DNA of 64,000 nt from an uncultured Victivallales bacterium (GCA_964635275.1 CAZWPN010000001.1:4149-68148); one strand, 5' to 3'; counted from the stretch's first letter, positions 2,687 to 49,302 are shown. The notes: generated by a model from the sequence alone, not told the origin. Translations and numbers: made by a program.

Positions 2687-2999
2687 TACCGCTCCGGATA
2701 GTGTACTGTGCGCGTCGTGTCGAGGATGCGACGTCTCATACAGCGGCTGCTTCCCCGGATCAAAGGCGCTGACGAACGGCAAACACTCGCCATGACAAGC
2801 CCCCTTGCAGTCCGTTCCCACACACTGCGCGCGCGATGCTATCCGACGAACCAAGTGCGTTCAATAGAAATTTGGGCTTTCACCAAAGAGCGACATTCCA
2901 TGGTTGGCAATGGGCTGCCTGCTCTGTAGGATCACGCCGCGAAGAAAATGGTGATAGACTATGCACGGAATGAAGAACGTTTCTTCCCGCGGTTTGCCC

Positions 3000-4178
3000 A
3001 TGAGAGATGGAGAACGGCCCCACATACTCCACGTCATCACGAGGATGGACGCCGGCGGCGCGGCAACCAACACACTTCTCGGCATGGACGGGGTTCGTAA
3101 TCACGGTTTCGATGTGACTCTTGTGTACGGCCGGACCAATGATCCCGACGGAAGTATCTCGGCACGGGTCCGGGATATGGGCATACCGGCCGTGCTCATT
3201 CCGTTCCTCGTCAGGGATGTCTCGCCGATCAGCGACCTGCGGGCTGCGGCCGCCATATATAGAATAATGAAGGCGGGCAAGTTTGCCCTCGTGCACACAC
3301 ACACTTCGAAAGCGGGAGCTCTCGGACGCATCGCGGCCAGATGCCTGCGTACTCCGGTCATCCATACACCCCACGGGCACATATTCTACGGTTATTTCGG
3401 CCCCTTGGGTACAACCGTCTACACGCATGTTGAGCGTTTCCTCGCACGGTGGTCGCACGGGCTTGTTTCCCTTACCGAAGACGAAACCATTGAGTGCCTG
3501 AAGCGGGCGATCGGCCGGCGAGAACAGTTTCACACCATCCCAAGCGGAGTGCCACTGGCTCACTTCATGGGCATTGCCCGTCAGGATGGGCTCGATCTGC
3601 GACATCACTGGGGCCTCCACGACAAATCCGTGCTTTTCGTTTCGGCTGGACGGCTGGTCCCGATCAAGGGGTTTGACTCACTGCTGCGTTCATTTGCCGT
3701 TTGCAGAGCACACAATCCCCACTGTTTCCTTGGCATTGTCGGAGACGGGCCCGAACGCGCATCGCTGGAGAAGTTGGCCGCATCCCTCGGCGTGGATCGG
3801 TGCGTCAGGTTCGCCGGCCACATGCACGACATCCGCCCCGCACTCAGCGCGGCGGATGTCTTTGTGCTGGCCAGCAAAAACGAAGGCATGGGCCGCGTCA
3901 TTGTTGAAGCGATGGCGGCCGGACTGCCGGTGATCGCAACAAAGGTCGGAGGGATTGTGAACTTGCTTCGTTCCAACGACACCGGCATACTGGTCGCTAA
4001 GGACGATACGGTCGCACTGGCAGACGCCATGAGGGAACTCGCCGATGATCGGACCAGGAGGCTCCGGATGGGTGCATGCGCCCGCGCGGAAGTCTATCCC
4101 GAATATGATCTGGAAACCATGGTTGCGCGCCTTGCGGACCTTTATAGACAAACGATCGCAGGAACCGGGAAAACGTAG
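3000..4178 (+). CDS. GT4-family (GT-B) glycosyltransferase.
   Basis: ORF 2961..4178. N-terminus ILHVITRMDAGG; C-terminal NEGMGRVIVEAMAAGLPVIATKVGG (EX7E-type GT4 motif). Confidence 0.8.
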   Translation: MRDGERPHILHVITRMDAGGAATNTLLGMDGVRNHGFDVTLVYGRTNDPDGSISARVRDMGIPAVLIPFLVRDVSPISDLRAAAAIYRIMKAGKFALVHTHTSKAGALGRIAARCLRTPVIHTPHGHIFYGYFGPLGTTVYTHVERFLARWSHGLVSLTEDETIECLKRAIGRREQFHTIPSGVPLAHFMGIARQDGLDLRHHWGLHDKSVLFVSAGRLVPIKGFDSLLRSFAVCRAHNPHCFLGIVGDGPERASLEKLAASLGVDRCVRFAGHMHDIRPALSAADVFVLASKNEGMGRVIVEAMAAGLPVIATKVGGIVNLLRSNDTGILVAKDDTVALADAMRELADDRTRRLRMGACARAEVYPEYDLETMVARLADLYRQTIAGTGKT

Positions 4179-4226
4179 CGACGTCGGCCAACACGCGAGC
4201 CAGCCACCGACGTTTGACTGACCACC

Positions 4227-4937
4227 ATGATCTGCGCCATTCACCAGCCTCAATTCCTGCCATGGCTCGGGTACTTGAACAAGTTCAACTCGGCGGACAT
4301 CGTAGTGCTGCTGGATAATGTCCAATTCCGGAAAAACGAGTTCCAGAACCGGAACCGCTTCTGCATACCAACAGGGACACATTGGCTTACCGTGCCGGTT
4401 ACTTTCAACTTCGGGGACACCATAAGGGGTGTCCGGGTTGCACAGGAGCCGTGGGCGCCGAAACTGTGGCGCACCATCGAGCACACTTACGCCAAGGCGC
4501 CATATTTCGCCGCCTATGCGCAGGGATTGAAGGCCATTCTTGATCGCCAATGGACAAGTCTGGCAGACATCAATGAAGCCACGGTTCGCTGGCTTCTTGA
4601 CTGCTTTGAGATCAGGACTCCTCTTGTGGTAGCATCACAGATGCCGGCCTTCACCGATGAGCGGACGGAGCGACTTGTGGACATCTGCCGCCATCTCAAA
4701 GCCGACGTCTATCTTTCCGGCAGTTGCGCCAAATGCTACCTCGAACTGGAAAAGTTCGAGTCGGTCGGTATCAAGGTCGAGTTCCAGTTATTCGAACATC
4801 CGGTCTACCGTCAGGTCAACAGCCCTGACAGTTTCCAATCCCACATGTCAGCCATCGACGGCCTGTTCAATTGCGGCGGCGGCATCGAGGGGCAGAAGTT
4901 GCTCAACCTCACACCAGCCATGGGGAACGCGCACTAA
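4227..4937 (+). CDS. WbqC-like family protein (O-antigen cluster protein of unknown biochemical function).
   Basis: 236 aa, MICAIHQPQFLPWLGYLNKF...VLLDNVQFRKNEFQNRNR, typical of the WbqC-like family. The stop overlaps the next start (TAATG). Confidence 0.6.
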   Translation: MICAIHQPQFLPWLGYLNKFNSADIVVLLDNVQFRKNEFQNRNRFCIPTGTHWLTVPVTFNFGDTIRGVRVAQEPWAPKLWRTIEHTYAKAPYFAAYAQGLKAILDRQWTSLADINEATVRWLLDCFEIRTPLVVASQMPAFTDERTERLVDICRHLKADVYLSGSCAKCYLELEKFESVGIKVEFQLFEHPVYRQVNSPDSFQSHMSAIDGLFNCGGGIEGQKLLNLTPAMGNAH

Positions 4938-5989
4938 TGCTTCCGCACGCAAGAATCCGAGCCTCGGAGGCTGACAAGGTTGCGGTGCTGGCAGTGCTGG
5001 AAAGTGGCCACTGGGCTGACGGGACTGAAGTGGCACGACTCGAAGAGAGCCTCTCCCGGCTCTGCGACGGGGCACATGCAGTAGCAGTCTCATCCGGAAC
5101 CGCAGCTCTATACCTGGCCCTTGATGCAGTAGGCGTATCGCCAGGCGACGAAGTAGTGATTCCCTCATATGCATGCAACAGCCTCTATGCTGCGGTTTCA
5201 CACGCTGGCGGACGGGCAGTCTGCGCCGATACCGGTTCGCGCACGGTAACACTGACACCAGACACCGTAAGGGCTGTGGCTGGATCATCAACCCGCGCCG
5301 TGATCGCCCCGCACACGTTTGGCTATCTGGCGGACATTACCAGCATCGGCGCCATCGGCCCCGCAATCATCGAGGACTGCGCACAGGCGATTGGAGGGAA
5401 ATACCCCGACGGGGCCCCGGTCGGAACAAAGGGGCAGGTGGGCGTCTTTTCGTTTCATGCCACAAAGATGCTGCCATCTGGCGCGGGAGGCGCCTGTGTA
5501 ACGCGGGATGCGGCGCTTGCGAACAGGATCCGCCGCCTGCGCTACTGCGATGAACGGCCCATTGATGCGAGGGCGTTCAACTTCAGACTTAACGATTTGT
5601 GCGCGGCCATTGCGCGTGTCAGGATTCCGCTGCTGCCATCTTGGATCGCCGAAAGAGCACGAATTGCCGATATGTACGACAGGCACCTGTCTCCATGGTC
5701 CTTCGCCAGGAACAACTCCATCAGGCAGGCCGTATGCTACAGGTACATCGTCAAGGTCAACGGCAACATGGAGAGGTTCCTTGCTGAGGCTTCGACTGCA
5801 GGCATCACCTGCCGCAAACCCGTCTGGAGGCCTCTTCACCACGCCTTGGACGGCCACTGCCCAAGAACAAATGAGTTATGGGAAACGACGGCGTCCATTC
5901 CGATGTATCCGGGATTGGAAGATGAGGAAATCGAACATGTATGCAAAACGCTTCCATCGCTGCTTTCCGCGGCGAACCTGCCTTCCTGA
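4937..5989 (+). CDS. DegT/DnrJ/EryC1/StrS-family PLP-dependent sugar aminotransferase (ArnB/WecE-like).
   Basis: ORF frame 4871..5989 with ATG at 4937. Motifs GDEVVIPSYAC, FSFHATKMLPSGAGGA (PLP-Lys region), and ...NFRLNDLCAAIA. Confidence 0.8.
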   Translation: MLPHARIRASEADKVAVLAVLESGHWADGTEVARLEESLSRLCDGAHAVAVSSGTAALYLALDAVGVSPGDEVVIPSYACNSLYAAVSHAGGRAVCADTGSRTVTLTPDTVRAVAGSSTRAVIAPHTFGYLADITSIGAIGPAIIEDCAQAIGGKYPDGAPVGTKGQVGVFSFHATKMLPSGAGGACVTRDAALANRIRRLRYCDERPIDARAFNFRLNDLCAAIARVRIPLLPSWIAERARIADMYDRHLSPWSFARNNSIRQAVCYRYIVKVNGNMERFLAEASTAGITCRKPVWRPLHHALDGHCPRTNELWETTASIPMYPGLEDEEIEHVCKTLPSLLSAANLPS

Positions 5990-6085
5990 CGGCGCGTCGC
6001 CACAGCAGGCGAACACAAGACGGCCTGACTTCGGGATCGGATCGTCCCGCAGGCGCTTTGGCAACATCCATTGGAGTCATTGACC

Positions 6086-7996
6086 GTGTGTGGAATAGTG
6101 GGTGTTGTATATCCGCAGGACGCATCGGCACTCAGGCCAGTGGTAAAAAGGATGGCCGATGCACTGGTTCACAGGGGCCCCGATGACGAGGGCTTCTTTG
6201 CCACCAACGGATTCGCGATCGGGTTCAGGCGTCTGAGCGTTCTTGACATCGGCGGTTCGCACCAGCCTATAGGAGGTGAGGACGGTACTGTGCAGATTGT
6301 CGGGAACGGCGAGATATACAACTATTCAGCACTCCGCTCGGAATTGCTGACACTTGGCCACGAGTTCAGGACCAACGGCGACATTGAAGTCGCGCTACAT
6401 GCCTACGAGCAATGGGGCATGAGTTTCCTCCGACGCCTTCGCGGGATGTTCGCAATGGCCATTCTCGACACGAAGAACGGACTGCTCCACATCGCCAGGG
6501 ACAGGGTTGGTATCAAACCTGTGTTCTACTACCACAGCGGCAACCGGCTCTTGTTCGGTTCGGAGATCAAGGCCATACTCGCATCCGGGCTGGCTCCACG
6601 CGAGGTCGACTGGGATGCCATTGACTCCTACCTGTCACTGCTGTACGTACCGGCACCCAACACCGCATTCGCCGGCATCCGCAAGCTGCCACCCGCTTCC
6701 GTTCTGACCTTCGACGGCCGTGTAGCCAGACTCAATAAATACTGGGAGCCGCGCCGGGAGACGGCCGTCGGCATGAACATCGAGGAGGCCTCCGAGCGAT
6801 TGCACGCGATCCTTCTTGACGCCGTGCGGCTGCACATGCAAAGCGATGTCCCCGTCGGCTTCTTCCTGAGCGGAGGAATGGACTCGAGCGCAATGGTGGC
6901 GCTCGCGGCCGAGGCCGGAGTCGCGCACCCTATAACTTTTTCGGCCGGCTTCCACGAGAAGTCGCACAACGAACTGGAGTATGCCAGGACGGTAGCCTCA
7001 CGGTTCTCCTGCGACCACCACGAAATGATGGTACGCCCGGACGCCGCGGACGTGCTGCCGCAGATAGCACAGGCATTCGATGAGCCGTTTGGCGATGCAT
7101 CGGCCGTGCCCACCTACTACATAAGCCGCTTCGCGGCTGGTCACGTAAAAGTCGCCATCGGCGGAGACGGAGGCGATGAACTGTTCGCGGGCTACGAGTG
7201 GACGAGGCGGCAACGTTTTGTTGAGCAATGGAATCGCCTGCCCCCGCCCCTGCGGAGGATCGCCGGGGCGATTACGCGCAACATAACACATTCATCTTCC
7301 GCGGCGGGCAAGTTCGCACGGTTCATCGCCGACGCCGCCTCCAACCCGCTCGACGGGTATCTTCGTCGCATCTCCTGCTTCACGGCGGAACACAAGGCTG
7401 GCGTCTACGGTCAGCGGCTCATGCAATCGCTGACATCCTCCACGGTACGCGCGCTCATGGCCGGATCCTTCGCCACGTCTGATACGGATCCCGTGAAAGG
7501 CATGAACGCCGCGGACTTCGATTTCTATCTTCCGGACGACGACCTGTGCAAGGTGGACCGCATGACCATGCTCCACTCGATCGAGGGCCGTGTGCCTCTT
7601 TTGGATCATGAAGTTGTCGAGTTCGCGCTCTCCCTGCCGCTGGAAATGAAGCTCAAGGGGCTCACCTCCAAGTTTATCCTCAAGAAATGCATGGAGAAGA
7701 CCCTCCCTCCGGAAGTGATGCGACAGAGAAAGCACGGCTTCGCCATACCCGTATCACGGTGGACGCGGAACGAACTCCACGGCGACATACGACGGATACT
7801 TCTTTCAGGCGCCGAAAGACGCGCGGACGTCTACAACCGGAATGGCTTGAGCCTGATGCTTGACATTCACAGGAGCGGACGGCAAGACCATGGCAGCAGG
7901 CTCTGGGCACTGCTCGTCCTGGAGCTATGGTTCCGCATGTACGTTGACGCGCCAGGCTGCGGCGGCGACAGGGGGCTCCGACTGTCGGACTTCTAG
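6086..7996 (+). CDS. Asparagine synthase-type (class II, Ntn) glutamine amidotransferase, AsnB/WbpS-like.
   Basis: GTG start gives MCGIVGVV (Cys2 nucleophile). GNGEIYNY, then SGGMDSS (PP-loop ATP pyrophosphatase motif). 637 aa. Confidence 0.85.
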   Translation: MCGIVGVVYPQDASALRPVVKRMADALVHRGPDDEGFFATNGFAIGFRRLSVLDIGGSHQPIGGEDGTVQIVGNGEIYNYSALRSELLTLGHEFRTNGDIEVALHAYEQWGMSFLRRLRGMFAMAILDTKNGLLHIARDRVGIKPVFYYHSGNRLLFGSEIKAILASGLAPREVDWDAIDSYLSLLYVPAPNTAFAGIRKLPPASVLTFDGRVARLNKYWEPRRETAVGMNIEEASERLHAILLDAVRLHMQSDVPVGFFLSGGMDSSAMVALAAEAGVAHPITFSAGFHEKSHNELEYARTVASRFSCDHHEMMVRPDAADVLPQIAQAFDEPFGDASAVPTYYISRFAAGHVKVAIGGDGGDELFAGYEWTRRQRFVEQWNRLPPPLRRIAGAITRNITHSSSAAGKFARFIADAASNPLDGYLRRISCFTAEHKAGVYGQRLMQSLTSSTVRALMAGSFATSDTDPVKGMNAADFDFYLPDDDLCKVDRMTMLHSIEGRVPLLDHEVVEFALSLPLEMKLKGLTSKFILKKCMEKTLPPEVMRQRKHGFAIPVSRWTRNELHGDIRRILLSGAERRADVYNRNGLSLMLDIHRSGRQDHGSRLWALLVLELWFRMYVDAPGCGGDRGLRLSDF

Positions 7997-9123
7997 GCCG
8001 TCTGCCCCGGCGGCGCACCCCGCCTGCCTTTTCGCGCTTCGCGTCGGGCGCTACGGCCCGACCGAGCCAACTCCTTCGAGATCTGATCACGCACATTACG
8101 CAGGGTTGCATCGAAGGAAATCCGGGGTTGCCATCCGATAAGCCTTTTGACAGTGGCAGTGTCCGGCACCCGCCGCCGAACGTCCTCGAATCCAGGAGCA
8201 TAGGCTTCGTCATACGGCACCATTCGCACCGCCGCCTTGTTCCCCGTCATGGCGTTGATGCGTTGGGCTAGTTGCATGATGGAGATTTCCCTTTGGCTGC
8301 CGATATTAGCCACCTTGCCGGGCGATGCAGGATGAATGCTTAAACCATGAATTGCCCTGACAACATCACGGACATCGCAGAAGCATCGGGACTGCTGCCC
8401 GTCACCGTAGACTGTCAGCGGCTCTCCCTTCAGGGCCTGGGCCATGAGCCGTGGAATCACCATTCCATACTGGCCGGTCTGGCGCGGTCCGACTGTATTG
8501 AAGAAACGCATCACCACGATTTCCAAGCCGTACTCATGCGCATACGCAAAGCCAAGAAACTCATCCACTATCTTGCTGGCCGCATAGCTCCACCGGTTCT
8601 TGGTTGTAGGTCCGAGCAGGAGGTCGTCGCCTTCACTGAAAGGCGCCTTGTCGCTCTTACCATAGACCTCGGACGTGCTGGCTATCAGCACCCTGCACCC
8701 GTACCGGAGCGCGGCCTGCAAAACCACCTCCGTGCCATGCACGTTAGTTTCAATTGTCTGAACAGGCTGGCTGATAATCCGCTCGACACCCACCATGGCT
8801 GCGAGGTGAACGATTATGTCCGCCTGCGATGTCATACGGTCCAGCACGATCGAATCCAGAATGTCCGCCCGGGCGAAATGGAATCCGGGAGTGCCAACGA
8901 GATGCTTGATGTTCTCCAGTTTCCCCGTGGAAAGATTGTCCATGGCGGAGACCTGATATCCACGCGCCAACAGGAACTCGCAGAGGTGCGAACCAATGAA
9001 CCCGGCTCCGCCGGTGATTAGAAAAGAGGGCTTTGCCGAATCCGATCGTATTCGCCGTGAAGGCGATGTCGCCCCCGTATGCCGTTCAACCATAAAGCTC
9101 CTTCCTGCCCTGGCGACCCGCAT
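7993..9123 (-). CDS. NAD-dependent epimerase/dehydratase (extended SDR); UDP-glucuronate decarboxylase/UDP-sugar 4-epimerase-like.
   Basis: ITGGAGFIGSHLCEFLL Rossmann motif; SYAASK (YxxxK catalytic dyad); MRFFNTVGPRQ. 3' end converges and overlaps asnB by 4 nt. Confidence 0.8.
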   Translation of the reverse strand: MRVARAGRSFMVERHTGATSPSRRIRSDSAKPSFLITGGAGFIGSHLCEFLLARGYQVSAMDNLSTGKLENIKHLVGTPGFHFARADILDSIVLDRMTSQADIIVHLAAMVGVERIISQPVQTIETNVHGTEVVLQAALRYGCRVLIASTSEVYGKSDKAPFSEGDDLLLGPTTKNRWSYAASKIVDEFLGFAYAHEYGLEIVVMRFFNTVGPRQTGQYGMVIPRLMAQALKGEPLTVYGDGQQSRCFCDVRDVVRAIHGLSIHPASPGKVANIGSQREISIMQLAQRINAMTGNKAAVRMVPYDEAYAPGFEDVRRRVPDTATVKRLIGWQPRISFDATLRNVRDQISKELARSGRSARREARKGRRGAPPGQTA

Positions 9124-23648: not shown

Positions 23649-25067
23649 TTAACGCTTGCCGGGGCGGGCTGAAGGGCCTGTTGCGCGGTCGGCCATGCGG
23701 GAGAAAGAATCTTTGTAGGCACTCAGGTGGTGCCGTATTGCGGTGCAGCCGTAGGCGGCAAAAACAATGACGATAGGCATGAGCGGCCAACGGTAACGTA
23801 TCTCGGTTATCGTCAGGATTAACATGCCGGTGCATACAAGGAATAGCGCAACAAGCAGACTTATGCCAACGCCATCTATCTCCTCAACTGACTGCATCAC
23901 GGGAACAGGGACAGCAGCACCAGCGCCGCCATGTGAATGACCCATACCGCAATCGGCAGAATCCGCGTCGCTCTTCTTTCGCCGGCGAAACCGTAATACT
24001 CGCCAGGCAACAATCATGCCTATCGCGGACAACGGGTAAAGAATGCAAACATCCTGCATCCACATCACGATGGTGTTGATCCGACGGCTTCCCTCATACG
24101 AAGGGCGGAACAGGTTTACAGCACGCCGCCAGCATAACCATGCGTAGCGCCCAGGGTTCTCCCGTATGAATGTTGCCGCCTCATGGTGCAGAAAACGATC
24201 CTGCTGCACTTCACTGCGCCCATCCGGAGGCGGCAATCCACCAGTGTCGATTCCCTGCAGTATCCATCCTCCGAAACCGCCATTGGATTTGGGGTTGTTG
24301 GCGCGGTAGATACTGATCCCGCCTCCTGACGACAAGGGAATCCATGTTCCCATGGAAACATAATTGCGTGCGATCCATGGCGACCAACATAAGGCGAACG
24401 CCAGCGTCACACAGGCCAGGGCAGGAAGAGCTCGGTGGTGGTGGCGCAGCAACAGCACTAAAGCCAGTAAGGAAGCCACCGCCAGTCCGATGGGACGAGT
24501 CAACAAGCACAACCCAAGAACCGCACCGGTCGCCAGCGCCAAGGTGATGCTCTCGACCTTCCGCAAGAGATGCACCCCAAGCAAGACTCCAAGAAACAAC
24601 AGGGTAGTGTAGAGGCATTCCGTCATTATGTAACACGGCATCTGTACCAGTGGCAGGTAGAGTGCACCCATCAGCAAGGCCCACAGCCCAGCCTCGCGAC
24701 CAAAGACCGCGCACGCAATTTGCGAGATGAGCAGACACAACAGAACTGCCATGACGACTTGGACCACGCGTACCGCGACCACATTGGGTCCTGCTATCGC
24801 GAATACCGCCGCAACCAGACCGGCGTACCCCGGCATGATGCTGGCCGTTGGGCGTCCCTCGATACTGTAGCCCTCGGAATTGAGCAGAGACAGCGCCAGC
24901 CCGGTATAATCCGTGGAATCGGCTTCGTAAGTTCGATTCAGATAGTACCGATCGCCCGGGTGCATGAAGAAGTACAGTAAACGAACGGCGAGCGCCAGAG
25001 CCAGACCGGCAAAAAGCAGCCATCTGGTTGAACGGTGCACTGTGCGGGCACACGGGCGATCTGGCAT
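23649..25067 (-). CDS. Polytopic GT-C fold glycosyltransferase (ArnT/PMT/GT39-like).
   Basis: 10 or more TM helices (e.g. LLFAGLALALAV, VVMAVLLCLLISQIACAVF). Second GT-C enzyme in the locus. Confidence 0.5.
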   Translation of the reverse strand: MPDRPCARTVHRSTRWLLFAGLALALAVRLLYFFMHPGDRYYLNRTYEADSTDYTGLALSLLNSEGYSIEGRPTASIMPGYAGLVAAVFAIAGPNVVAVRVVQVVMAVLLCLLISQIACAVFGREAGLWALLMGALYLPLVQMPCYIMTECLYTTLLFLGVLLGVHLLRKVESITLALATGAVLGLCLLTRPIGLAVASLLALVLLLRHHHRALPALACVTLAFALCWSPWIARNYVSMGTWIPLSSGGGISIYRANNPKSNGGFGGWILQGIDTGGLPPPDGRSEVQQDRFLHHEAATFIRENPGRYAWLCWRRAVNLFRPSYEGSRRINTIVMWMQDVCILYPLSAIGMIVAWRVLRFRRRKKSDADSADCGMGHSHGGAGAAVPVPVMQSVEEIDGVGISLLVALFLVCTGMLILTITEIRYRWPLMPIVIVFAAYGCTAIRHHLSAYKDSFSRMADRATGPSARPGKR

Positions 25068-25155
25068 CCCAGGATCTTGATTGCGCGCTGTCACTGTGAC
25101 GCTTTCATGTGCGAGACCATGTCGCATCGGCCTACGTTCATACGAACGGTCCTCC

Positions 25156-26085
25156 TCACATCTTGAGAGCAGATGGAATCCTGAGCCCTCTGAGGACCCC
25201 GCGCAAGATCGCCGCCGTCTCCCGCCAGTGCCCATTCCTCAATTCGGGATACAGACTGCCGATGAAGATGCTCCGTAACATGCGGAACAACAGACCGCAC
25301 CTTCCGCGCCGGGACTGCGAAAGGAAGAACCAGAGGCGATTCCTTGTCCTGAAAAAATAGAATTGCGGCGTACACTTGCCGAGCGAGGACGAAACATCAT
25401 GCAAGGCGCGCACGCGAGGCGATGCCCACAGCGAGAATCCCTGCCGCTTTATCTTCCAGCACCAGTCCGTGTCTTCAAGGTATATGACGTAATCGTCAAC
25501 AAACTCCCCGCAGCGTTCCACGGCAGCGCGCGTTGCACACAGAAACGCTGTTGGAATGGTGTCTACTTCCCTGTCATAGGCGAATGCACCGTCAATCTTC
25601 CCGCCCTGCCCCCCGTCAAACATGCTGCCGTCCGCCCAGTCTATCAGCCCGCCGCCGGCACACCAGCATACATCTGGCTCTGCTTGGTACGCGATGTGCG
25701 CTCCAACAGCCCCGACATTGCCCATCCGCCCGTTCCCCTCATCAAGAAACCTGACAGCCTGCTCCAGCGTATCAGGGAAAACGACAATGTCGTTATCCAT
25801 GAATGCCAACGCACGCCAATTCCTGGAGTCCCTGAAACGACGCAGGATGATGTTACGCCCTGCGGCCGCGCCTATGTTCGCAGCTTCCGTGTGTGTCGTT
25901 ACAAAAGGATAGACTGATGCCGCCTCGGCGATGCCCTGGCCTGATCCGTTATCCACGATCAGGACGTCAAAGGATGTATATGTGCTTCTGGCCAGACTCT
26001 CGAGACAAGCCATGGTCTTGTCCTTGTGGTTGCAGGCCAGTATTCCCACCAGCAAACGATCACAGTCACTTGCAGGGCTGACCAT
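25156..26085 (-). CDS. GT2-family glycosyltransferase.
   Basis: LLVGILACNHKDKT...VLIVDNGSGQG...AFMDNDIVV. Confidence 0.75.
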   Translation of the reverse strand: MVSPASDCDRLLVGILACNHKDKTMACLESLARSTYTSFDVLIVDNGSGQGIAEAASVYPFVTTHTEAANIGAAAGRNIILRRFRDSRNWRALAFMDNDIVVFPDTLEQAVRFLDEGNGRMGNVGAVGAHIAYQAEPDVCWCAGGGLIDWADGSMFDGGQGGKIDGAFAYDREVDTIPTAFLCATRAAVERCGEFVDDYVIYLEDTDWCWKIKRQGFSLWASPRVRALHDVSSSLGKCTPQFYFFRTRNRLWFFLSQSRRGRCGLLFRMLRSIFIGSLYPELRNGHWRETAAILRGVLRGLRIPSALKM

Positions 26086-28285: not shown

Positions 28286-29317
28286 CTAATGTAACAAACC
28301 GGCAACGCTTCTCATCATGCCGCCAAATGGACCTATTTCCGCCTTGAATACCGGAAGCGGCCAGTCTTGCACATGAATCCGATGCAGTTCAAACAGATTG
28401 GAAGGAGGACACGGATTCGTCTTCCCCCCCACAAGACATGCATACCTGTAGCTGGCACCTTTCGCCAACTCCGTCATCCATGGCTCAAAGCTGGCGCTCG
28501 GATAGGAAAATCCATGCACAGCTCTGCGCAAATGCCGTTCAATCTCCAGCCTGGAATGCCGCAGCTCGTGTTCAACCCGACTTGGAGACAGTTGCGCAAG
28601 CTGGGGATGCGTCAACGTGTGCGACCCAATCTCCATGAGATGCTCAGGCATTCGTTCGACATGTTCACGGGTTAGCATAAGCCCATCGGCCACATCAGTC
28701 CCGGCGCGCTCTCCAGCCGCATGCTCCATCCGCTCGACGGCGGCAAGCAGTTCATCGTCTGGCAGCCGCTTCAACAGGTTCCACATCGAATGAACAGCCT
28801 CTCTGCGGGACACATCCCCGCCCACGGCAAATTCGTACACTCCATTCCGAAACTCAAGACTGAGTCGCTGCTTGCTGGTATGTCGGACTGCATGCTCGAC
28901 ACGATCGGTCCAAAGGACATCCGTACTGCCGGCAACCGATCCTGTCACATAGACGGATGCCGACGCGCCATGCCGTTCAAGAATTGGCGCCGCCTTCTCG
29001 GCAACGTCGGAATAGCCGTCGTCGAAAGTCACGGCCAGAACCTTAGGCGGCAACGGCACCCCGGCGTTCACCCGATCGACAATGTCGCAGAGCCTCATGA
29101 CGCTGAAGCGGCTGGCAACGTAGCCCATATGTGCATCGAAGTTCTCCGGCGAGACACACGGCCCGTAGGTCAGCGAAGGGGCATTCACCCGATGGTATGC
29201 GAGGATGTAAAGCTTCCGCGCGGCGTCGTAACTGAGAAGCCTGTCGGCAAGACCTGAAACACCGACGCAGCGACAAAGCGCCCGGTGAATAACATGAAGA
29301 ATCATTCGCCTGCTCAT
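28286..29317 (-). CDS. Polysaccharide deacetylase (CE4/NodB-homology) family; ArnD-like deformylase/deacetylase candidate.
   Basis: LAVTFDDGYSDV motif; ...IGSHTLTHP. Confidence 0.75.
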   Translation of the reverse strand: MSRRMILHVIHRALCRCVGVSGLADRLLSYDAARKLYILAYHRVNAPSLTYGPCVSPENFDAHMGYVASRFSVMRLCDIVDRVNAGVPLPPKVLAVTFDDGYSDVAEKAAPILERHGASASVYVTGSVAGSTDVLWTDRVEHAVRHTSKQRLSLEFRNGVYEFAVGGDVSRREAVHSMWNLLKRLPDDELLAAVERMEHAAGERAGTDVADGLMLTREHVERMPEHLMEIGSHTLTHPQLAQLSPSRVEHELRHSRLEIERHLRRAVHGFSYPSASFEPWMTELAKGASYRYACLVGGKTNPCPPSNLFELHRIHVQDWPLPVFKAEIGPFGGMMRSVAGLLH

Positions 29318-30141
29318 GGGACCGTCTTCACTTCATCAATAGCGCCTCGGCCAACGCGCTCCAGATAACGCGAGATAAGCCCATCGGCCAGACGCCTATT
29401 CATCTCCAACCGTCTGGCGAGGGTGAAATCGCGCGACAAGTACAGTTTTCCATCACACCATTGCGGAACACCGGGAAGCTTGCCGTTCTTGAAACCCGTC
29501 ACAGTTCTAGCCATCAGCTCCGTCCCAAGCGCAATAACCTTGCACTCCAACGTATGCAGGTTGTCGTCCTCGCAAATGGAAGGTCGCGCCGTCCTGATGA
29601 TATGACCGGAGTCTATCCCTGGATCGATGTAATGTATTGTCACACCAACATGCTGGGGCGCCTCGTTGTAAAGCGCGAAGAAAGTCGAATGCCCTCCCCG
29701 GTAGTACGGAGAGAGCCCCGTATGAATATTGACGGCAGCAAGCCGGGGCACTGAGATCAGGGGGGCACGCAGCAAACTGGTTCCAAACACCACCAGGAGA
29801 TCGGGCGAGAGCCTGGTGGCAAGCTCGACGGTTTCCGGTGAGTTTATGTCCTGAGTAACTACGACAGAATGGGCTCTGATTGCCGACGGCAGAACTGTTC
29901 CGAACCACTTGGCGTGTGTCCTGCTCTCTTCAGCCTCATCTGACCTGAGCATCGACTTCCTGACCAGATTGGCCATAAGGGTAAGGGGGCGGCGGCGGCT
30001 GCCGCGCCACAGCCTACCCAACCTGTCTGCGGCAGAATAGCGCTGCTCAACAATCACTCCGGCGATCTCATTCTCTGCCGCCAATCTCTCAACAAAGCGT
30101 GTTTGCCTCGCCTCATCTGCTGTCAGTATCAGCAAACGCAT
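29314..30141 (-). CDS. Formyltransferase (Fmt/ArnA N-terminal domain family).
   Basis: MRLLILTAD...VFGTSLLRAPLI...AVNIHTGLSPYYRGGHSTFFALYN (N10-formyl-THF formyltransferase core with HxSLLPxxRG-like block). Confidence 0.75.
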   Translation of the reverse strand: MRLLILTADEARQTRFVERLAAENEIAGVIVEQRYSAADRLGRLWRGSRRRPLTLMANLVRKSMLRSDEAEESRTHAKWFGTVLPSAIRAHSVVVTQDINSPETVELATRLSPDLLVVFGTSLLRAPLISVPRLAAVNIHTGLSPYYRGGHSTFFALYNEAPQHVGVTIHYIDPGIDSGHIIRTARPSICEDDNLHTLECKVIALGTELMARTVTGFKNGKLPGVPQWCDGKLYLSRDFTLARRLEMNRRLADGLISRYLERVGRGAIDEVKTVP

Positions 30142-30381
30142 TGTCTTTCTCCGCCCGCGTGGTTCGCTGCATGGAGAAACCCGCCTAAATACAGACGGGA
30201 CGACGACGCGGCAGCGAATGGCCCTGGCTCTCTGATGATGCACTCAATAGCATTTACAGAAACAACCCTGTAGGCAACTTGGCACGCCTTGGACCATCGG
30301 AGAGCCAAGCACTCCGAACACTGAACGGTGTTGGCGCAAGATACGGCCCACGATTCCTTGCACAATGAGCAAACCATCCCG

Positions 30382-32217: not shown

Positions 32218-34146
32218 TTGCCACGGACGCAAGCGGGCTGTATTGTAACAGAGATGTGCGGCAAGTCATCCACTAACTGGGCATTTGACATGGCCTTGCC
32301 GGCGGCCTTTGCCCTGTGCGCATGGGGTTTCGGCGGCGAAGACTACCGCTTTTCAGGCGCCGCTCTCGCGGTGCTATTCTCCGTTGCGGCCATTACCGTG
32401 CTTTGCACAATGCGCGGCCGTGAAGAACTTGACCTCCCTCGACTGCGTTGCCTTCTTCCTGCAGCCTGCCTCATGGCTCTGGCTGTCGCCATGACAATCT
32501 TCTCCGTGAACCGGTTCGCTTCCCTCGTAGGCATCGTGCATACAGGCGCCCTGGCGGTTGCATTCCTGATGGTTGCTTCCGCGCCGGCAAGAAGTGCGCA
32601 CCGCATCCTGGCGGCGTGCGTCACGGTAGTAGGCATGCTTTCAGTCTACGGCTTCATGCAGTCCGTTGGTTTCTTCGAAAGCGGCTACTGGTATAATGGC
32701 CAGTTTGCCTCCCGGTTCGTCAACAGCGCACACTTCGGCGCCATGGTGGCCGTGGCAATAGTCGTTGGGGTTGGTCTAGCGCCATGCCTCAAGGGAGCGT
32801 GGCGTTTCGCCGTGCTGGCCTCCATCCCCGCAAACGCCGCCGCCATGCTGCAGACGAGGTCCCGGGCGGTATGGATACTAGCGGCGTTGGTCTACACATT
32901 TGTTTTCCTCTTCGCCGGCATTAGACTGCGCAGTCAGGAGAGAAGAACGGGGCGCTGGGTTCTCGCCGGCATGTTGCTTGCGGTACTATGTCTTGGCGCA
33001 GGGGGTTACCTGCTGCGCCACAGCATATCGGACCGCTTCGCTCAACTCGCGACGACGCAATTCCATGCGATCTTCCATCGGGCGGACATACTGCGGGACA
33101 GTGCGATGATGATCCGCGCCAACCCCATGGGCGTTGGCGCCGGGTGCTACGAGGATGCAATCCTCCGCTACAAGATTGGAGTGGACCGCAGCGTCGCAAA
33201 CCACGCGCACAACGAGGTGTTCGAAATAGTCGGCGAACTCGGCTGGGCCGCATTTCCCCTTCTAATCTGGCTCATCGTCGCAATCGGCAGGGATTTCCGG
33301 GCCGCTGCTTCACGGTGCGCTCCCAACTCCCTCTTGTTGGCGAGCGCGCTGGCGGCCGGACTTTCGATCTATGCCTTGCACAGTCTCGTTGATTTCCCGC
33401 TCCGTCTCATGGCGAACAGTCTCTTCGCTGCGTTCATCCTGGGAGCGCTTCTCAACAAAGAGTTCACGGGTGCCGAAGGCATGAGGACCTTGGCGGCAGG
33501 GCGGCTCGCGAAGCTGCTGCTGCCCGCACTGTGCGCCGCCCTGGCTGCGTTCTGCTGTCTGCAAGCGGCGTCTGCAATCTGGACGGCTTCGGCGGAATCG
33601 CACCTGTTGCGCCTTCGTATGGAGGATGCGCGCCAGGCGCTTGTGAAATCGTCGTTCTGGATGCCGCTGGATCCTCGGACGGCCTACCTGAGAGGCAACG
33701 CCGCCTACGCCATGTCGGCCATCGCGCCGGAACCGCGGAAGTCCGCGCTTAGATCTGAAGCCCTTGAGTGGTTGCGCCGGGCCGCCAGCATTGCTTCAAC
33801 TCATGCCGACACTCATCTGCGCCTTGCCTGGATTCGTGCCGATCTTGGACAGTCGAGGGATGCCATTGAATCTTTTCGCAAGGCCATAAGTTGCGATCCG
33901 AAACTAGGCATCTACCACTTCTATTACGCCGAGTACCTGCTGGCGCTCAAGCAATGGCACGAGGCGGCGAAGGAATACAGAACCGCATTGGAGACCTTCA
34001 ACGACAACAGCATAATAGGGGCGGAGAGTATTTTCAGGAAGATCCTCGTGCAGTCTGGAGACGAGGCAATTGCGGAAGAGGCATGCCCGTCCGAGCCAGG
34101 CTTCCGAGCCAGCCTCGAGAGGGTTTTGCGGGAGCGCAAGAAGTGA
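32218..34146 (+). CDS. O-antigen ligase/polymerase-family (Wzy_C/WaaL-like) membrane protein with a C-terminal TPR-repeat domain.
   Basis: About 10 TM helices; NHAHNEVFEIVGELGW (Wzy_C motif). The C-terminal ~200 aa have TPR-like repeats (AIESFRKAISCDPKLGIYHFYYAEYLLALKQWHEAAKEYRTALE). The real start is possibly at the internal ATG ~32254 or ~32290. Confidence 0.7.
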   Translation: MPRTQAGCIVTEMCGKSSTNWAFDMALPAAFALCAWGFGGEDYRFSGAALAVLFSVAAITVLCTMRGREELDLPRLRCLLPAACLMALAVAMTIFSVNRFASLVGIVHTGALAVAFLMVASAPARSAHRILAACVTVVGMLSVYGFMQSVGFFESGYWYNGQFASRFVNSAHFGAMVAVAIVVGVGLAPCLKGAWRFAVLASIPANAAAMLQTRSRAVWILAALVYTFVFLFAGIRLRSQERRTGRWVLAGMLLAVLCLGAGGYLLRHSISDRFAQLATTQFHAIFHRADILRDSAMMIRANPMGVGAGCYEDAILRYKIGVDRSVANHAHNEVFEIVGELGWAAFPLLIWLIVAIGRDFRAAASRCAPNSLLLASALAAGLSIYALHSLVDFPLRLMANSLFAAFILGALLNKEFTGAEGMRTLAAGRLAKLLLPALCAALAAFCCLQAASAIWTASAESHLLRLRMEDARQALVKSSFWMPLDPRTAYLRGNAAYAMSAIAPEPRKSALRSEALEWLRRAASIASTHADTHLRLAWIRADLGQSRDAIESFRKAISCDPKLGIYHFYYAEYLLALKQWHEAAKEYRTALETFNDNSIIGAESIFRKILVQSGDEAIAEEACPSEPGFRASLERVLRERKK

Positions 34147-35057
34147 GCGCGAAATCCAGACTTCTTGCCAAAAGACTCGCGTTGTACGCTCTGGCGGCCG
34201 TGGGCTACGCCCTGTGCCTTCCTCTCCTTAGACTGTTGCGTGTGCATTCCGGCCGGGAGCGGTTCAGGATCTTCAACTACCATAGCGTCAGTTCAATGCG
34301 CAAGCATGCCACAACGGTGACTTCGGAAGTATTCGCCAACCACATATCGCTCATCCGAGACAGGGCCACCATCGTAGGCATGGACGATATTCTGGAATCG
34401 GTCAGGGGCGACGCATTGCTGGCGCCAAACGCCGTAGCGATCACCCTCGACGACGGGTACGCGGATAACCTTTACGGCGCACTCCCCGTTTTCATGCGCT
34501 ACAGGGTCCCGGCAGTGTGCTTTGTGACCGTGGCATTCATCGGAACCGACAAACTGCTGCCGCACGACGCCGCCGACACCGTTGAAGCAGCCCGTCTTCT
34601 TTCGTGGGCCGAGGTCCGCAAACTTGAAGACGGCGGTGTGGAGATAGGATCGCACGGACTGACGCACATCCGGCTATCGAAGGCGCCATCCCCCACCGTT
34701 CATACAGAGGAAATACGGAGAAGTTACGACATACTGAGCAGTCGTCTCCACAAACCGCCAAGGTGCATCGCCTTCCCATTCGGACAAAAGGGAGACTACA
34801 CGCCCGAGACGCTTAAAGAGTCGAAAGAAGCAGGTTACCTTTGCGCCTTTTCAGCGCAGTACGGATGGAATTGCGGAAGATCCAACCCATACGAACTCCG
34901 TAGAATCGGCATCGACGGCAGCGACACTCTCTTCACGCTCAGGGCAAAACTGAACGGCGCTCTGGATCTCTTGAGTGTCACGCGGACCAGGCCGGTCCGA
35001 GCCATCATTGCCTGGGTAAACACGTTGACCAAACGGTGCATCAGATGCGAGTACTAA
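34143..35057 (+). CDS. Polysaccharide deacetylase (CE4) family protein; second copy.
   Basis: NAVAITLDDGYADN; ...IGSHGLTHI. The GTG start overlaps the ligase TGA (GTGA). Confidence 0.75.
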   Translation: MSAKSRLLAKRLALYALAAVGYALCLPLLRLLRVHSGRERFRIFNYHSVSSMRKHATTVTSEVFANHISLIRDRATIVGMDDILESVRGDALLAPNAVAITLDDGYADNLYGALPVFMRYRVPAVCFVTVAFIGTDKLLPHDAADTVEAARLLSWAEVRKLEDGGVEIGSHGLTHIRLSKAPSPTVHTEEIRRSYDILSSRLHKPPRCIAFPFGQKGDYTPETLKESKEAGYLCAFSAQYGWNCGRSNPYELRRIGIDGSDTLFTLRAKLNGALDLLSVTRTRPVRAIIAWVNTLTKRCIRCEY

Positions 35058-36172
35058 TGGTTACGGTCGATTTCATCCCGCACAGCGACGGGGTGAGCAC
35101 TCTAAGCTACAACTACGCCAGAAGACTGGCGGAACTCGGACACGAGGTGGAAGTCGTCGGCCCGAAATCCGAAGGACAGGAAGATGCCGACAGCAAAGCG
35201 CCCTACACTATTCGAAGGTTTCCTGGCTACCACCTTGGCCCCCTTCGATTTATCCCATTTGCGGCACACGTTATACGAGCCATTCGAGAGCGGAAACCAG
35301 ACGTACTCATGGCGATGAACATCGGATACGGCGGGATTCTATCCCTGTTTCATCCGACTGCACGGCGCATTCCCGTCATTGTAATGGCCTATGGCTTGGA
35401 GTTCAGGAAGTTCCGGAACAACCCCGTTTTCTCGGCGCTCTACCGTCACATCTACAAGAGGAGCGTCCTCGTCATCGCAGTCAGCAACTACACCAGAAGT
35501 GAACTTCTCGAGCTTGGAGCTCCGGCGGAACGTGTGAAGATGGTCTACCCGGGAACATTCAAGCCGGCCCAGATGCATGAATCCGCCCCGCCGGCGCCCA
35601 GAGCAGGCAAGCCCGTCATCGGCACATGCGGCCGTCTGATACGTCGCAAAGGCCACGATATCGTGATCCGCGCACTTCCAATGGTTATAGCGACTCACCC
35701 CGGAATCGAATACGTTATCGTCGGTAAAGGCCCGGAAGCGGATAACCTCCGCGCTCTGGCCATCTCACTCGGAGTCGAAAAACATGTCACATTCCTCGGG
35801 GAGGTACCAGCCGACGAACTACCGTCATTCCTGAAATCCCTCGATGTGTTTGTCATGCCCAGCAGAAACGACCGAATGACAGGACATGTGGAGGGATTCG
35901 GCATCGTCTATCTGGAGGCTGCCGTATACGGTGTGCCTTCCATCGGCACGACCACCGGCGGAATCCCGGAAGCCATCGTGGATGGTGAGACAGGAATGCT
36001 TGTTCCTGACGAATCGCCAGCCGCCCTGGGGACTGTCCTGTCCGATCTCCTTAAGCGCCCTGCCGAAGTCTGTCGTCTAGGGCAGAACGCCAAACACAGG
36101 GCTGAGACCGAATTCCTGTGGGACCATCAGGTCGATCGCTTTAACACCATGCTCTTGAACGCAGGAAAGTGA
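35045..36172 (+). CDS. GT4-family glycosyltransferase.
   Basis: MRVLMVTVDFIPHSDGVS...VEGFGIVYLEAAVYGVPSIGTTTGG. Confidence 0.8.
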   Translation: MRVLMVTVDFIPHSDGVSTLSYNYARRLAELGHEVEVVGPKSEGQEDADSKAPYTIRRFPGYHLGPLRFIPFAAHVIRAIRERKPDVLMAMNIGYGGILSLFHPTARRIPVIVMAYGLEFRKFRNNPVFSALYRHIYKRSVLVIAVSNYTRSELLELGAPAERVKMVYPGTFKPAQMHESAPPAPRAGKPVIGTCGRLIRRKGHDIVIRALPMVIATHPGIEYVIVGKGPEADNLRALAISLGVEKHVTFLGEVPADELPSFLKSLDVFVMPSRNDRMTGHVEGFGIVYLEAAVYGVPSIGTTTGGIPEAIVDGETGMLVPDESPAALGTVLSDLLKRPAEVCRLGQNAKHRAETEFLWDHQVDRFNTMLLNAGK

Positions 36173-36184
36173 GAGGACTGCCGA

Positions 36185-37030
36185 ATGGAATCCACAGCAA
36201 CACAGCGACAAGACGGAGCTGGTCAGACAGCCATCCCGCGGTTGAAAGTTGCCATTGTCACCAGGACAGGACGGCCATCCGGGGCCAGATTCGCCATGGC
36301 CGTGGGACAAAGTGGACATCAGATCAGCGGCATCATCGCCGAGAAGCGATCCGCCATGCTCTGGCGGGCTATACGCCGCCTCGGGATTGGGGGCTTTCTG
36401 AGGAAATACCCGCATGCCTGGCTTGCAGCACGCATCAGCAATACAATTCAAACCATACTCGGTCGGCGGATCTCAGGAAATAGTAATGTCCTCGCGGCAT
36501 GCCCATCGGCGGCTGATACAGCAAAACGGTTCTCGGCCCCCTATGCGGAGGTCAGCGACTTGAACTCCTCGGATTCCCTCGCGATACTAAAGCGGTGGAA
36601 CCCTGACGTCCTTGTTGTCGCAAATGCTCCGGTACTCAAGGATCATGTGATGGGCACTGCACGACTGGGAGGAATCAATTTCCATTCCGGCCACTTGCCG
36701 GAATACGGCGGAGTGGCCTCCGAATTCTGGGCCATGTTCGATGGAAACACCACAGCCTGGGCCACACTGCACCAAGTGTTACCTACACTGGATTCAGGGG
36801 ACATCCTCGCCGAGGAGCCTGTGCCTATAGATGCATCAGACACGCCGGAAACGCTTCACGAGCGCTGCGTTGCAAGGGGCGTGTCAATGATAGGAGCGGT
36901 TCTGGACACCATGGCATCCGGATCTTGTAGGCCGGTCAGGTCCCCTGGTCCGGCTGTTCTGCGGAAATGGCCGTCGTCGCAGGAGCACAGCGCTCTATTA
37001 CGCAGGCTGCATGCCACCGTCATCACATGA
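36185..37030 (+). CDS. Formyltransferase-family protein; second copy, Formyl_trans_N-like.
   Basis: LKVAIVTRTGRPSG...DVLVVANAPVLKDHVM...GINFHSGHLPEYGG. Confidence 0.6.
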   Translation: MESTATQRQDGAGQTAIPRLKVAIVTRTGRPSGARFAMAVGQSGHQISGIIAEKRSAMLWRAIRRLGIGGFLRKYPHAWLAARISNTIQTILGRRISGNSNVLAACPSAADTAKRFSAPYAEVSDLNSSDSLAILKRWNPDVLVVANAPVLKDHVMGTARLGGINFHSGHLPEYGGVASEFWAMFDGNTTAWATLHQVLPTLDSGDILAEEPVPIDASDTPETLHERCVARGVSMIGAVLDTMASGSCRPVRSPGPAVLRKWPSSQEHSALLRRLHATVIT

Positions 37031-37751
37031 CGAATCGGTAACAGCAAAACGCTTCCGCCGCATCGACGCAGATTTCATGGCCATGCACAGCCATCTGATG
37101 TTCCAGCATCGACAGGCTGAGATAGTGCGGCGGCTGACGCAACTGTGACACATGGCACTTCATGGCCTCTCTCTTAATCTCGACATAGTCCGAGATATCG
37201 ACGTACAGATTAGGGTGAAACTTGTCCTGCTCGACATTCCAGAAATGGGTCGGACTGTCGTAGGCCACGACGATTCGTGGATAGTCGCAACCATTCTGCG
37301 TATGCGGTCGGCACGCCGTGAACCCTGCCCGAAAGACCGCCTCGTGATCCTGATTGTAGGATATTGACGGAAGCGCAACCATCGTCGGCCTAAAATGATC
37401 CATCCCGAGACGACTGCGACGGCAAATGGCATCGATCAGATCCCGCCGCCCCATCTTGTCAAGCCGAAGGTGCGTTTCTTCGTCCTCATATAAGATTTCT
37501 GCGTCGTCAACATTCATAGCCTTCATCCCGTCAAAGAATTCCTGGCGTCTAGTGCGAGCCGTAATCAAGGATGCAGCAGTGTCATACTGTACAAGGTTCG
37601 CAATCGTGACGCAGATCACGTTCACCTTGCCGCCATGGGCCTTGACCTTGGCGATTGTGCCGGCGCAGCCGAACACTTCGTCATCAGCATGCGGAGTCAC
37701 AACCAACAACCGTTGCTTCGCCCAAAACTCATCTGGCAGCAGATGCATCAT
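37023..37751 (-). CDS. PIG-L/LmbE-family N-acetylglucosaminyl deacetylase.
   Basis: RLLVVTPHADDEVFGCAGT (HPDDE-type motif). Confidence 0.8.
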   Translation of the reverse strand: MMHLLPDEFWAKQRLLVVTPHADDEVFGCAGTIAKVKAHGGKVNVICVTIANLVQYDTAASLITARTRRQEFFDGMKAMNVDDAEILYEDEETHLRLDKMGRRDLIDAICRRSRLGMDHFRPTMVALPSISYNQDHEAVFRAGFTACRPHTQNGCDYPRIVVAYDSPTHFWNVEQDKFHPNLYVDISDYVEIKREAMKCHVSQLRQPPHYLSLSMLEHQMAVHGHEICVDAAEAFCCYRFVM

Positions 37752-48603: not shown

Positions 48604-48615
48604 ACGGGGGGCGTA

Positions 48616-49254: not shown

Positions 49255-49302
49255 CGGCGATGCCGTCACCCGTGCATGCCGTCGTCAGGGGGCGGATGGG
49301 GT

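Follow-up and report, generated by a model that had tools for sequence, protein, structure and literature searches.

A WbqC-like protein in a Victivallales polysaccharide locus as a candidate ligase of amino acids to sugar amines

The DNA analysed here is a stretch of 64,000 nucleotides from an uncultured Victivallales bacterium (GCA_964635275.1, CAZWPN010000001.1:4149-68148), called the window below, in which positions are counted from the first letter. Our subject is the segment 4227-7996, which is filled by three co-directional genes on the + strand, and above all the first of these genes, encoding a WbqC-like protein. A previous examination of the same DNA without database searches (the sequence-only reading) had recognised a WbqC-like protein, a DegT aminotransferase and an AsnB-type amidotransferase. 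Pfam matches, all with E-values far beyond chance, bear out these identities and their common orientation.

The three genes and their junctions

The segment contains the following features.

4227-4937, + strand: WbqC, 236 amino acids, PF08889, E = 1.1e-66
4935-4939, + strand: TAATG, overlap of the WbqC stop (TAA, 4935-4937) and the DegT start (ATG, 4937-4939), read from the sequence
4937-5989, + strand: DegT/DnrJ/EryC1/StrS sugar aminotransferase, 350 amino acids, PF01041, E = 5e-67, 227 bits
5990-6085, + strand: spacer between DegT and AsnB, 96 nucleotides, read from the sequence
6086-7996, + strand: AsnB-type amidotransferase, 636 amino acids, GATase_7 E = 1.5e-40, Asn_synthase E = 1e-90

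The TAATG at the WbqC/DegT junction is consistent with translational coupling. Such overlaps had been announced for the whole triad; they exist at this first junction and not at the second, where DegT ends with TGA (5987-5989) and the AsnB frame opens, beyond the spacer, with a GTG at 6086 that is directly followed by the Cys codon and preceded, nine nucleotides upstream, by GGAG. An assembly chimera at the DegT/AsnB junction was ruled out. Identical proteins in the same order, a glycosyltransferase of family GT4 followed by WbqC, DegT and AsnB, with a convergent short-chain dehydrogenase/reductase (SDR) gene, were found in two independent assemblies (L096, from JGI, and L097, from Logan), and a sister taxon (L098), whose WbqC and AsnB are 82% and 77% identical to those of the window, retains GT4-WbqC-DegT-AsnB. 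Because the independent assemblies and the sister taxon keep this order, the arrangement is not an assembly artefact. The spacer measures about 30 nucleotides in the sister taxon, as the result of a 64-nucleotide deletion that leaves only the GGAG ribosome-binding site and the GTG-TGY start conserved, and a conserved regulatory element in the spacer was rejected on this ground. Promoter and terminator scans of the spacer gave chance-level results, with no terminator-like site. At the other end of the triad, the AsnB stop codon (TAG, 7994-7996) and that of the convergent SDR gene are both contained in the palindrome CTAG (7993-7996), for a tail-to-tail overlap of 3-4 nucleotides.

The DegT protein has its pyridoxal phosphate lysine at K177, within SFHATK, and by this residue and its Pfam match it is a sugar aminotransferase and not a dehydratase. 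Its best NCBIfam matches were PseC, ArnB and LegC, each under its cut-off (164.8 versus 423.5 for PseC, 145.3 versus 631 for ArnB), and it was not assignable to any of the substrate-specific equivalogs PseC, ArnB, LegC and WecE, every score being under the cut-off. Its top matches in the PDB are a mixture of 3- and 4-aminotransferases.

WbqC: operon, wider family and fold

Neighbours of WbqC were counted over 83 non-redundant loci of one orthologous group, searched by means of profiles derived from proteins of the window. The loci were fetched by two WbqC motifs, so that the sample covers one subfamily only, and the denominators below are the loci with enough flank. The closest WbqC relatives, 55-64% identical, come from metagenome-assembled genomes of Verrucomicrobiota, Kiritimatiellia and Lentisphaerota, and these best matches indicate a bacterium of the PVC (Planctomycetes-Verrucomicrobia-Chlamydiae) group as the source. 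A co-directional operon recurred among the 83 loci, in which one or more GT4 genes are followed by WbqC, often PIG-L, DegT and a WecA-like phosphotransferase (GT4..WbqC-(PIG-L)-DegT-phosphotransferase). In 59 of 67 loci a DegT gene lay downstream of WbqC at no more than 2.5 kb, PIG-L adjoined WbqC in 52 of 75, the phosphotransferase lay within 4 kb downstream in 48 of 60, and a GT4 gene within 3.5 kb upstream in 51 of 62. Between the GT4 genes and WbqC of one Nitrospira-type locus (L004, 8343-9902) lies a gene for a 519-amino-acid protein with a weak PHP-domain match only, and in other Nitrospira-type loci WbqC stands apart from the last GT4 gene by a comparable 1.5 kb.

The same families are present in the window, two of them at a distance from the triad.

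2961-4178, + strand: GT4 glycosyltransferase, directly upstream of WbqC, Pfam Glycos_transf_1 E = 5e-37
37023-37844, - strand: PIG-L (LmbE/BshB-like) de-N-acetylase, PF02585 E = 6.6e-17, NCBIfam matches to BshB1 and BshB2 only
37729-38850, - strand: WecA-like polyprenyl-phosphate sugar-phosphate transferase (PGT), PF00953 E = 2.7e-28, best NCBIfam match WecA

The top four NCBIfam matches of the GT4 protein were TIGR03088, EpsE, BshA (1.4e-34) and MshA; it is 47-51% identical to the WbqC-adjacent GT4 proteins of the closest related loci (L001-L011), and it probably uses UDP-N-acetylglucosamine. The window PGT shares 59% identity with the one encoded after DegT in locus L005, and for the window PIG-L the identities to its counterparts in the GT4-WbqC-DegT-PGT-PIG-L operons of L003 and L005 are 75% and 69%, respectively. 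Both are now separated from the triad by about 31-32 kb of other glycan genes. From these identities it follows that the ancestral operon was split in the window lineage, with AsnB now standing at the break point. By this comparison, PGT and PIG-L are displaced members of the ancestral WbqC operon, and the spacer downstream of DegT marks the point where that operon ran on into the phosphotransferase gene.

The position of AsnB fits this history. Not one of the 83 related loci had AsnB immediately after DegT or up to 3 kb downstream of WbqC, the sister taxon L098 being the only other place where this was seen. On these neighbourhood statistics the triad, put forward as a unit in the sequence-only reading, is not a conserved one, and the AsnB-DegT adjacency is best described as a shallow, lineage-specific rearrangement. 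At a distance of up to 10 kb from WbqC, AsnB was present in 21 of 36 full-flank loci, namely all 16 of the Nitrospira type and a few from Syntrophales, Omnitrophota and Mariprofundaceae; in these loci its distance is about 4 kb, on the upstream side, and it shares only 36-40% identity with its counterpart in the window. Within the same distance it was absent from all 7 full-flank loci of named PVC taxa (Kiritimatiellae, Verrucomicrobia, Victivallales, Spartobacteria) and from the Scalindua, Planctomycetes and Deltaproteobacteria loci.

Beyond this subfamily, a profile search returned 17,015 WbqC clusters at 50% identity, 12,321 of them at E≤1e-10. WbqC-like proteins occur in O-antigen, capsule and exopolysaccharide loci of many phyla, including those of Shiga toxin-producing E. 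coli O121 and of gut Bacteroides, and B. thetaiotaomicron BT2884-85 is a WbqC and DegT pair. Distant, plasmid-borne members from seven genera adjoin DegT and/or PIG-L. The arrangement is sugar dehydrogenase-DegT-SDR-aminotransferase-GNAT-WbqC-PIG-L-MFS in B. cereus and Mycobacterium branderi, WbqC-DegT-NTP transferase-MurG-like in S. vietnamensis, and DegT-radical SAM-methyltransferase-WbqC in Solidesulfovibrio, while in Azospirillum and Rhizobium WbqC is found with rffA. For one member, on a Streptomyces plasmid, the surroundings show no link to sugars. In Mariluticola the order is pseB-pseC-pseF-PIG-L-pseG-neuB-x-WbqC, with asnB nearby (about 7 kb); this pseudaminic-acid-type cluster with PIG-L, WbqC and asnB (L085, plasmid NZ_CP090961, 529-14648) has no annotated PseH, and its gene content suggests, as the product, a nonulosonic acid that varies in its N-acyl group. 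Among the best 150 matches, 3 of the 6 long proteins (P0290, P0359, P0373) join WbqC to a GNAT acetyltransferase, either domain coming first. Tandem WbqC-WbqC proteins were also seen, the set of fused and tandem proteins including P0244 and P0251 besides these three. Of 15 papers in the searchable literature that mention WbqC, none gives a function for it or ties it to BshC.

The WbqC protein of the window matches PF08889 with 225.2 bits against a cut-off of 21.3, its residues 7-217 covering positions 1-212 of the 218 of the profile. It has the residues found family-wide, that is an N-terminal [HI]Q[PS]x[FY][LI]P, D30, the N41-R42-N43 motif and Y171. Over 17 diverse members, P12, D30, R42, P57, Y88, A159, G165 and Y171 were invariant, and Q7, W13, G15, Q33, N41, N43, Y162, Y194, Q196 and D211 nearly so. 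An AlphaFold2 model built from 51 homologues reached a mean predicted local distance difference test score (pLDDT) of 94.5 and a predicted template modelling score (pTM) of 0.91. In this model the conserved residues lie where the beta-strands end C-terminally, which is the edge that usually forms the active site in this fold. Foldseek returned BshC as the sole match at E≤1e-3, and the Rossmann-like core of the model, with its connective-peptide insertions, superposes on BshC. As modelled, then, WbqC has a nucleotide-binding fold like that of class I aminoacyl-tRNA synthetases (aaRS) and of BshC, and not the ATP-grasp or acyltransferase fold that had been envisaged. This core covers the 236 amino acids from end to end. 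WbqC contains no anticodon-binding or other tRNA-binding domain, and it lacks the C-terminal coiled-coil dimerisation domain of BshC (about 540 amino acids), which the paper on structure 4WBD reportedly describes. In summary, WbqC is a PF08889 member which, by sequence and by architecture, does not belong to the BshC family, but which, according to the model and the gene neighbourhoods, resembles BshC in fold and in genomic partners.

The amidotransferase and the surrounding polysaccharide locus

The intact Cys2 nucleophile and PP-loop reported for AsnB were both found, the former in the start MCGIVG and the latter as SGGMDS at residues 262-267 (nucleotides 6869-6886), as were R49, N74-G75-E76 and D99 of the glutamine site. 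Alignment with E. coli AsnB (1ct9) showed the replacements T322P, T323F, R325D and E348D at positions which we take to belong to the aspartate site of the E. coli enzyme; K449 of E. coli is kept, as K549. Against the AsnB equivalog NF006949 the window protein scored 295.9 bits, in three fragments, for a cut-off of 499. Its best family is TIGR03108 (eps_aminotran_1), and its best relative in the PDB is the hydroxyamidotransferase TsnB9 (7ylz). TIGR03108 contains WbpS, WbqG and P. gingivalis PGN_1234, which are makers of uronamides, WbqG being required for uronamide formation (PMC7468200). The closest orthologues of the window AsnB, 53-56% identical, stand in Wza-Wzc-Wzy-AsnB blocks that contain neither WbqC nor DegT, and these blocks adjoin gene kinds like those at 26-37 kb of the window. 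The best reading of these matches is that the window AsnB amidates a glycan carboxylate with glutamine, most likely that of a uronic acid. It is an ordinary enzyme in this respect, a further WbpS-like amidotransferase encoded among glycan genes.

The triad block is one end of a polysaccharide locus of about 36 kb, with the PGT and PIG-L genes at the other, and two further features of this locus bear on the argument.

7993-9123, - strand: convergent SDR, UDP-glucuronate decarboxylase (UXS)/ArnA-C-like, PDB matches human UXS1 (2e-54) and ArnA (6e-38)
11938-14167: Wzm and Wzt, ABC exporter genes

The SDR, which holds the same position in L096 and L097, has NCBIfam matches that include LegB, RmlB, ArnA and UDP-4-keto-pentose/UDP-xylose synthase. 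It is a candidate supplier of the 4-keto sugar for DegT, and its UXS-like character implies that UDP-glucuronic acid is available, presumably made elsewhere. Judging from the Wzm and Wzt genes, the polysaccharide is exported by an ABC transporter. Other genes of the locus encode several GT2, GT4 and GT9 glycosyltransferases, a methyltransferase, two PMT_2 proteins of the GT-C class and a Wzy_C-TPR protein, and there are two pairs made of a polysaccharide deacetylase and a formyltransferase-like gene. Part of this content forms an Arn-like set (7993-9123, 16440-18113, 23649-25235, 28286-30243 and 33891-37030) composed of the UXS/ArnA-C-like SDR, an ArnB-like DegT, two formyltransferase-like proteins, two polysaccharide deacetylases, GT2 genes and the two PMT_2 GT-C proteins. 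One of the formyltransferase-like proteins has dTDP-4-amino-4,6-dideoxyglucose formyltransferase as its best match, and the set hints at a branch with 4-amino-4-deoxy-pentose or an N-formyl amino sugar.

Beyond the glycan locus are the housekeeping genes ribF, truB, infB and nusA. On the - strand, 57662-63994 encodes a protein of at least 2110 amino acids that extends past the end of the window, with PA14 repeats, weak GLEYA and CBM6 matches and no PEP-CTERM tail. Three long open reading frames (ORFs) are without a Pfam match (105-788, +; 48403-49269, -; 53469-55889, +), and one such Pfam-less ORF, for a protein of 806 amino acids, is flanked by a TIM-barrel/alcohol-dehydrogenase fusion on one side and a GH127-like gene on the other. 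A link to the exosortase/PEP-CTERM system, prompted by the names of TIGR03108 and TIGR03088, was discarded, since no window ORF had a PEP-CTERM tail and no exosortase was seen.

Proposed function, rival readings and known systems

We propose, with a probability of roughly one half (0.5), that 2961-9123 is a sugar-tailoring block in which WbqC serves as a ligase that goes through an adenylate to N-aminoacylate a sugar amine, and in which AsnB acts separately. This activity is suggested for WbqC because it almost always adjoins one or both of the amine-exposing enzymes DegT and PIG-L, is often near or fused to an N-acetyltransferase, and has the fold of amino-acid-activating enzymes. The UXS/ArnA-like SDR, or another dehydratase, would provide a 4-keto nucleotide sugar, which DegT would transaminate to an amino sugar. 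WbqC would then use ATP to convert an amino acid into an acyl-adenylate and transfer it onto a free sugar amine, which could be that of the DegT product or one at C2 that PIG-L uncovers by deacetylation. MshC is an ATP-dependent Cys:GlcN-inositol ligase (GlcN, glucosamine), and the WbqC step would be the MshC/BshC step of the thiol pathways carried over to a glycan. The new alpha-amine could be acetylated or formylated, by a GNAT or by formyl capping comparable to MshD; the WbqC-GNAT fusions parallel the succession of ligation and acetylation by MshC and MshD. Through the action of the GT4 and the WecA-like transferase, the modified sugar would become the basal unit of a glycan linked to undecaprenyl. 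Apart from these steps, the AsnB-type enzyme would use glutamine and ATP to convert a carboxylate, most likely the C6 of a uronic acid as for WbpS and WbqG, into an amide. The expectation that clues to the function of WbqC might be drawn from its gene context was borne out, in that a specific ligase hypothesis emerged.

Several findings weigh against the proposal. A profile of 51 WbqC sequences searched against the PDB gave no BshC at E≤10 and only a chance match to DapA, and a Pfam scan of 51 members at E≤10 returned PF08889 only, with no BshC match, so that neither search gave a sequence link of WbqC to BshC or to an aaRS. The HIGH and KMSKS motifs are absent from WbqC; the HIGH position is occupied by H6-Q7-P8-Q9, and H6 is replaced by Ile in the sampled alphaproteobacterial members (Azospirillum, Rhizobium) and in Solidesulfovibrio. 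The closest structural relative gives no proof of ATP-dependent ligation, because BshC is defined genetically as the enzyme adding cysteine to GlcN-malate and its reaction has never been reconstituted (PMC5790435). Two formyltransferase-like genes of the window encode possible alternative acylators of the DegT product. The argument from E. coli O121, to which we return below, presupposes that the O-antigen cluster there has the presumed gene order and content, with wbqC and VioA. As for the amidotransferase, its 552.6 bits against TIGR03108 are below the cut-off of 816.9, and no UDP-sugar 6-dehydrogenase that could be the source of a uronic acid was found among the window ORFs scanned.

The amino acid might instead come from an aminoacyl-tRNA, without ATP activation. 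Cyclodipeptide synthases are class-I-aaRS-like folds that lost the ATP chemistry, and a similar logic would account for a WbqC with this fold and neither HIGH nor KMSKS. In Streptomyces, a dedicated ProRS paralogue and a tRNA-ProX are encoded together with WbqC in the operon proSx-GT4-WbqC-lmbE-tRNA-ProX-murG (PMC10404621), and for BshC, itself not reconstituted, an activated form of cysteine that is not identified has been presumed (PMC5790435). No tRNA gene was found in the window, and tRNA genes showed no enrichment near WbqC among 91 loci. We regard a tRNA-dependent WbqC as unlikely, though worth keeping in mind. It has a bolder extension, doubtful in our eyes, in which WbqC and BshC would be one ancient family of stripped class I aaRS cores that use aminoacyl-tRNA as the donor to aminoacylate sugar amines. 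If this were true, it would explain at once why BshC has not been reconstituted, why Streptomyces keeps a private ProRS and tRNA-ProX, and how the amino sugars of many O antigens and capsules come to bear amino acids.

The sequence-only reading had favoured a single sugar, aminated by DegT and amidated on its uronic carboxylate by a WbpS-type AsnB, with WbqC as an accessory. The amidation half of this model agrees with the best family of AsnB, which is that of WbpS and WbqG, and the genes are indeed co-directional and close, in an order kept by the sister taxon; moreover, in the Wbp/Vim pathway of P. gingivalis a single sugar combines amine, amino acid and amide (PMC7468200). Nothing, however, ties the amide to the sugar of DegT, and in E. 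coli O121 the uronamide and the DegT product are separate residues. With AsnB directly after DegT in 0 of 83 related loci, its orthologues in Wza-Wzc-Wzy blocks, a spacer that is not conserved and no uronic acid dehydrogenase found in the window, we consider the single-sugar model distinctly doubtful.

Another enzyme of the HUP nucleotide-binding fold, for instance a nucleotidyltransferase that forms no amide, would also suit the WbqC model and is improbable. Fold matches other than BshC and LysRS were far weaker, several loci already own a separate nucleotidyltransferase (PseF, NTP transferase), and the tight link to amine-forming enzymes and the GNAT fusions would be left unexplained. We give still less credit to an AsnB that amidates the carboxylate of an acyl or amino-acid group placed by WbqC, converting for example Asp or Glu to Asn or Gln. 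AsnB-family enzymes do amidate amino-acid carboxylates of peptidoglycan stem peptides, AsnB adjoins WbqC-DegT in the window and in the sister taxon, and some loci of Nitrospira, Syntrophales, Omnitrophota and Mariprofundaceae have it no more than 10 kb from WbqC, that of Mariluticola at about 7 kb; against this, the full-flank PVC loci (7 of 7) and those of Scalindua, Planctomycetes and Deltaproteobacteria have no AsnB at that distance, and nothing points directly to an acidic amino acid. Finally, a housekeeping asparagine synthetase present in the glycan locus by chance, the outcome that the sequence-only reading had named as fatal to its own model, is very improbable and was rejected: the protein passes the broad TIGR01536 (asn_synth_AEB, 455.6 versus 267.1) and sources name it asparagine synthase, but it fails NF006949, has P, F, D and D in place of T322, T323, R325 and E348, and has its closest orthologues always inside glycan clusters.

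The interest of the ligase proposal is that the BshC-like fold, the near-obligate pairing with makers of sugar amines, the GNAT fusions and the chemistry of O121 converge on one assayable hypothesis for WbqC. Amino acids are borne by the amino sugars of many surface glycans, and a search of the available literature found no enzyme that attaches them. A link of WbqC to BshC, an enzyme of bacillithiol synthesis with a reaction still unsolved, also comes out of the analysis, while the triad itself turned out to be ordinary.

Among known systems, the AsnB-type amidotransferases WbpS (P. aeruginosa O6) and WbtH (Francisella) stand, like that of the window, in loci with DegT, theirs being O-antigen loci, and share its best family; the window protein differs by its score of 552.6 for a cut-off of 816.9, by its best PDB relative 7ylz and by the lack of a UDP-HexNAc dehydrogenase nearby. 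The Wbp/Vim system of P. gingivalis (WbpE/PorR, VimE, VimA, WbpS) requires the same four activities, aminotransferase, de-N-acetylase, amino-acid transfer and TIGR03108 uronamide synthase (PMC7468200). There, however, the proposed amino-acid transferase is VimA, a predicted N-acetyltransferase, and the deacetylase is VimE, in place of WbqC and PIG-L, and the window shows no type IX secretion or sortase-like context and no PEP-CTERM tails.

WbqG of E. coli O121 is a uronamide enzyme (PMC7468200). The organism is another one, and the window differs by its Wzm/Wzt export and by the GT4-WbqC-(PIG-L)-DegT-WecA-like module to which its WbqC belongs. The O antigen of E. coli O121, the organism from which the wbq gene names come, carries N-acetylglycine, and we take it that this group is on 4-amino-4,6-dideoxyglucose (Qui4N), made by VioA, the uronamide of N-acetylgalactosaminuronic acid (GalNAcAN) being a separate residue. 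On its presumed gene content, the cluster of E. coli O121 and Shigella dysenteriae type 7 shares the DegT aminotransferase, WbqC and AsnB-type families with the window. Because O121 has N-acetylglycine and WbqG makes the uronamide, the glycyl step would be left to WbqC by elimination, provided that wbqC belongs to the cluster. The gene set of the window is a new example of this O121-type trio.

The closest parallel in logic is offered by bacillithiol (BshA/B/C) and mycothiol (MshA/B/C/D) synthesis, in which a GT4 N-acetylglucosamine transferase, a PIG-L protein, a class-I-aaRS-like adder of an amino acid and a GNAT succeed each other. The correspondence with the bacillithiol partners is at the level of gene family and synteny only, the PIG-L and GT4 of the window being under the equivalog cut-offs, and WbqC has neither sequence homology to BshC nor its coiled coil. 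The WbqC operon, for its part, carries a membrane phosphotransferase and DegT, and the product is for this reason expected to be a glycan on a lipid carrier, unlike the soluble thiols of those pathways.

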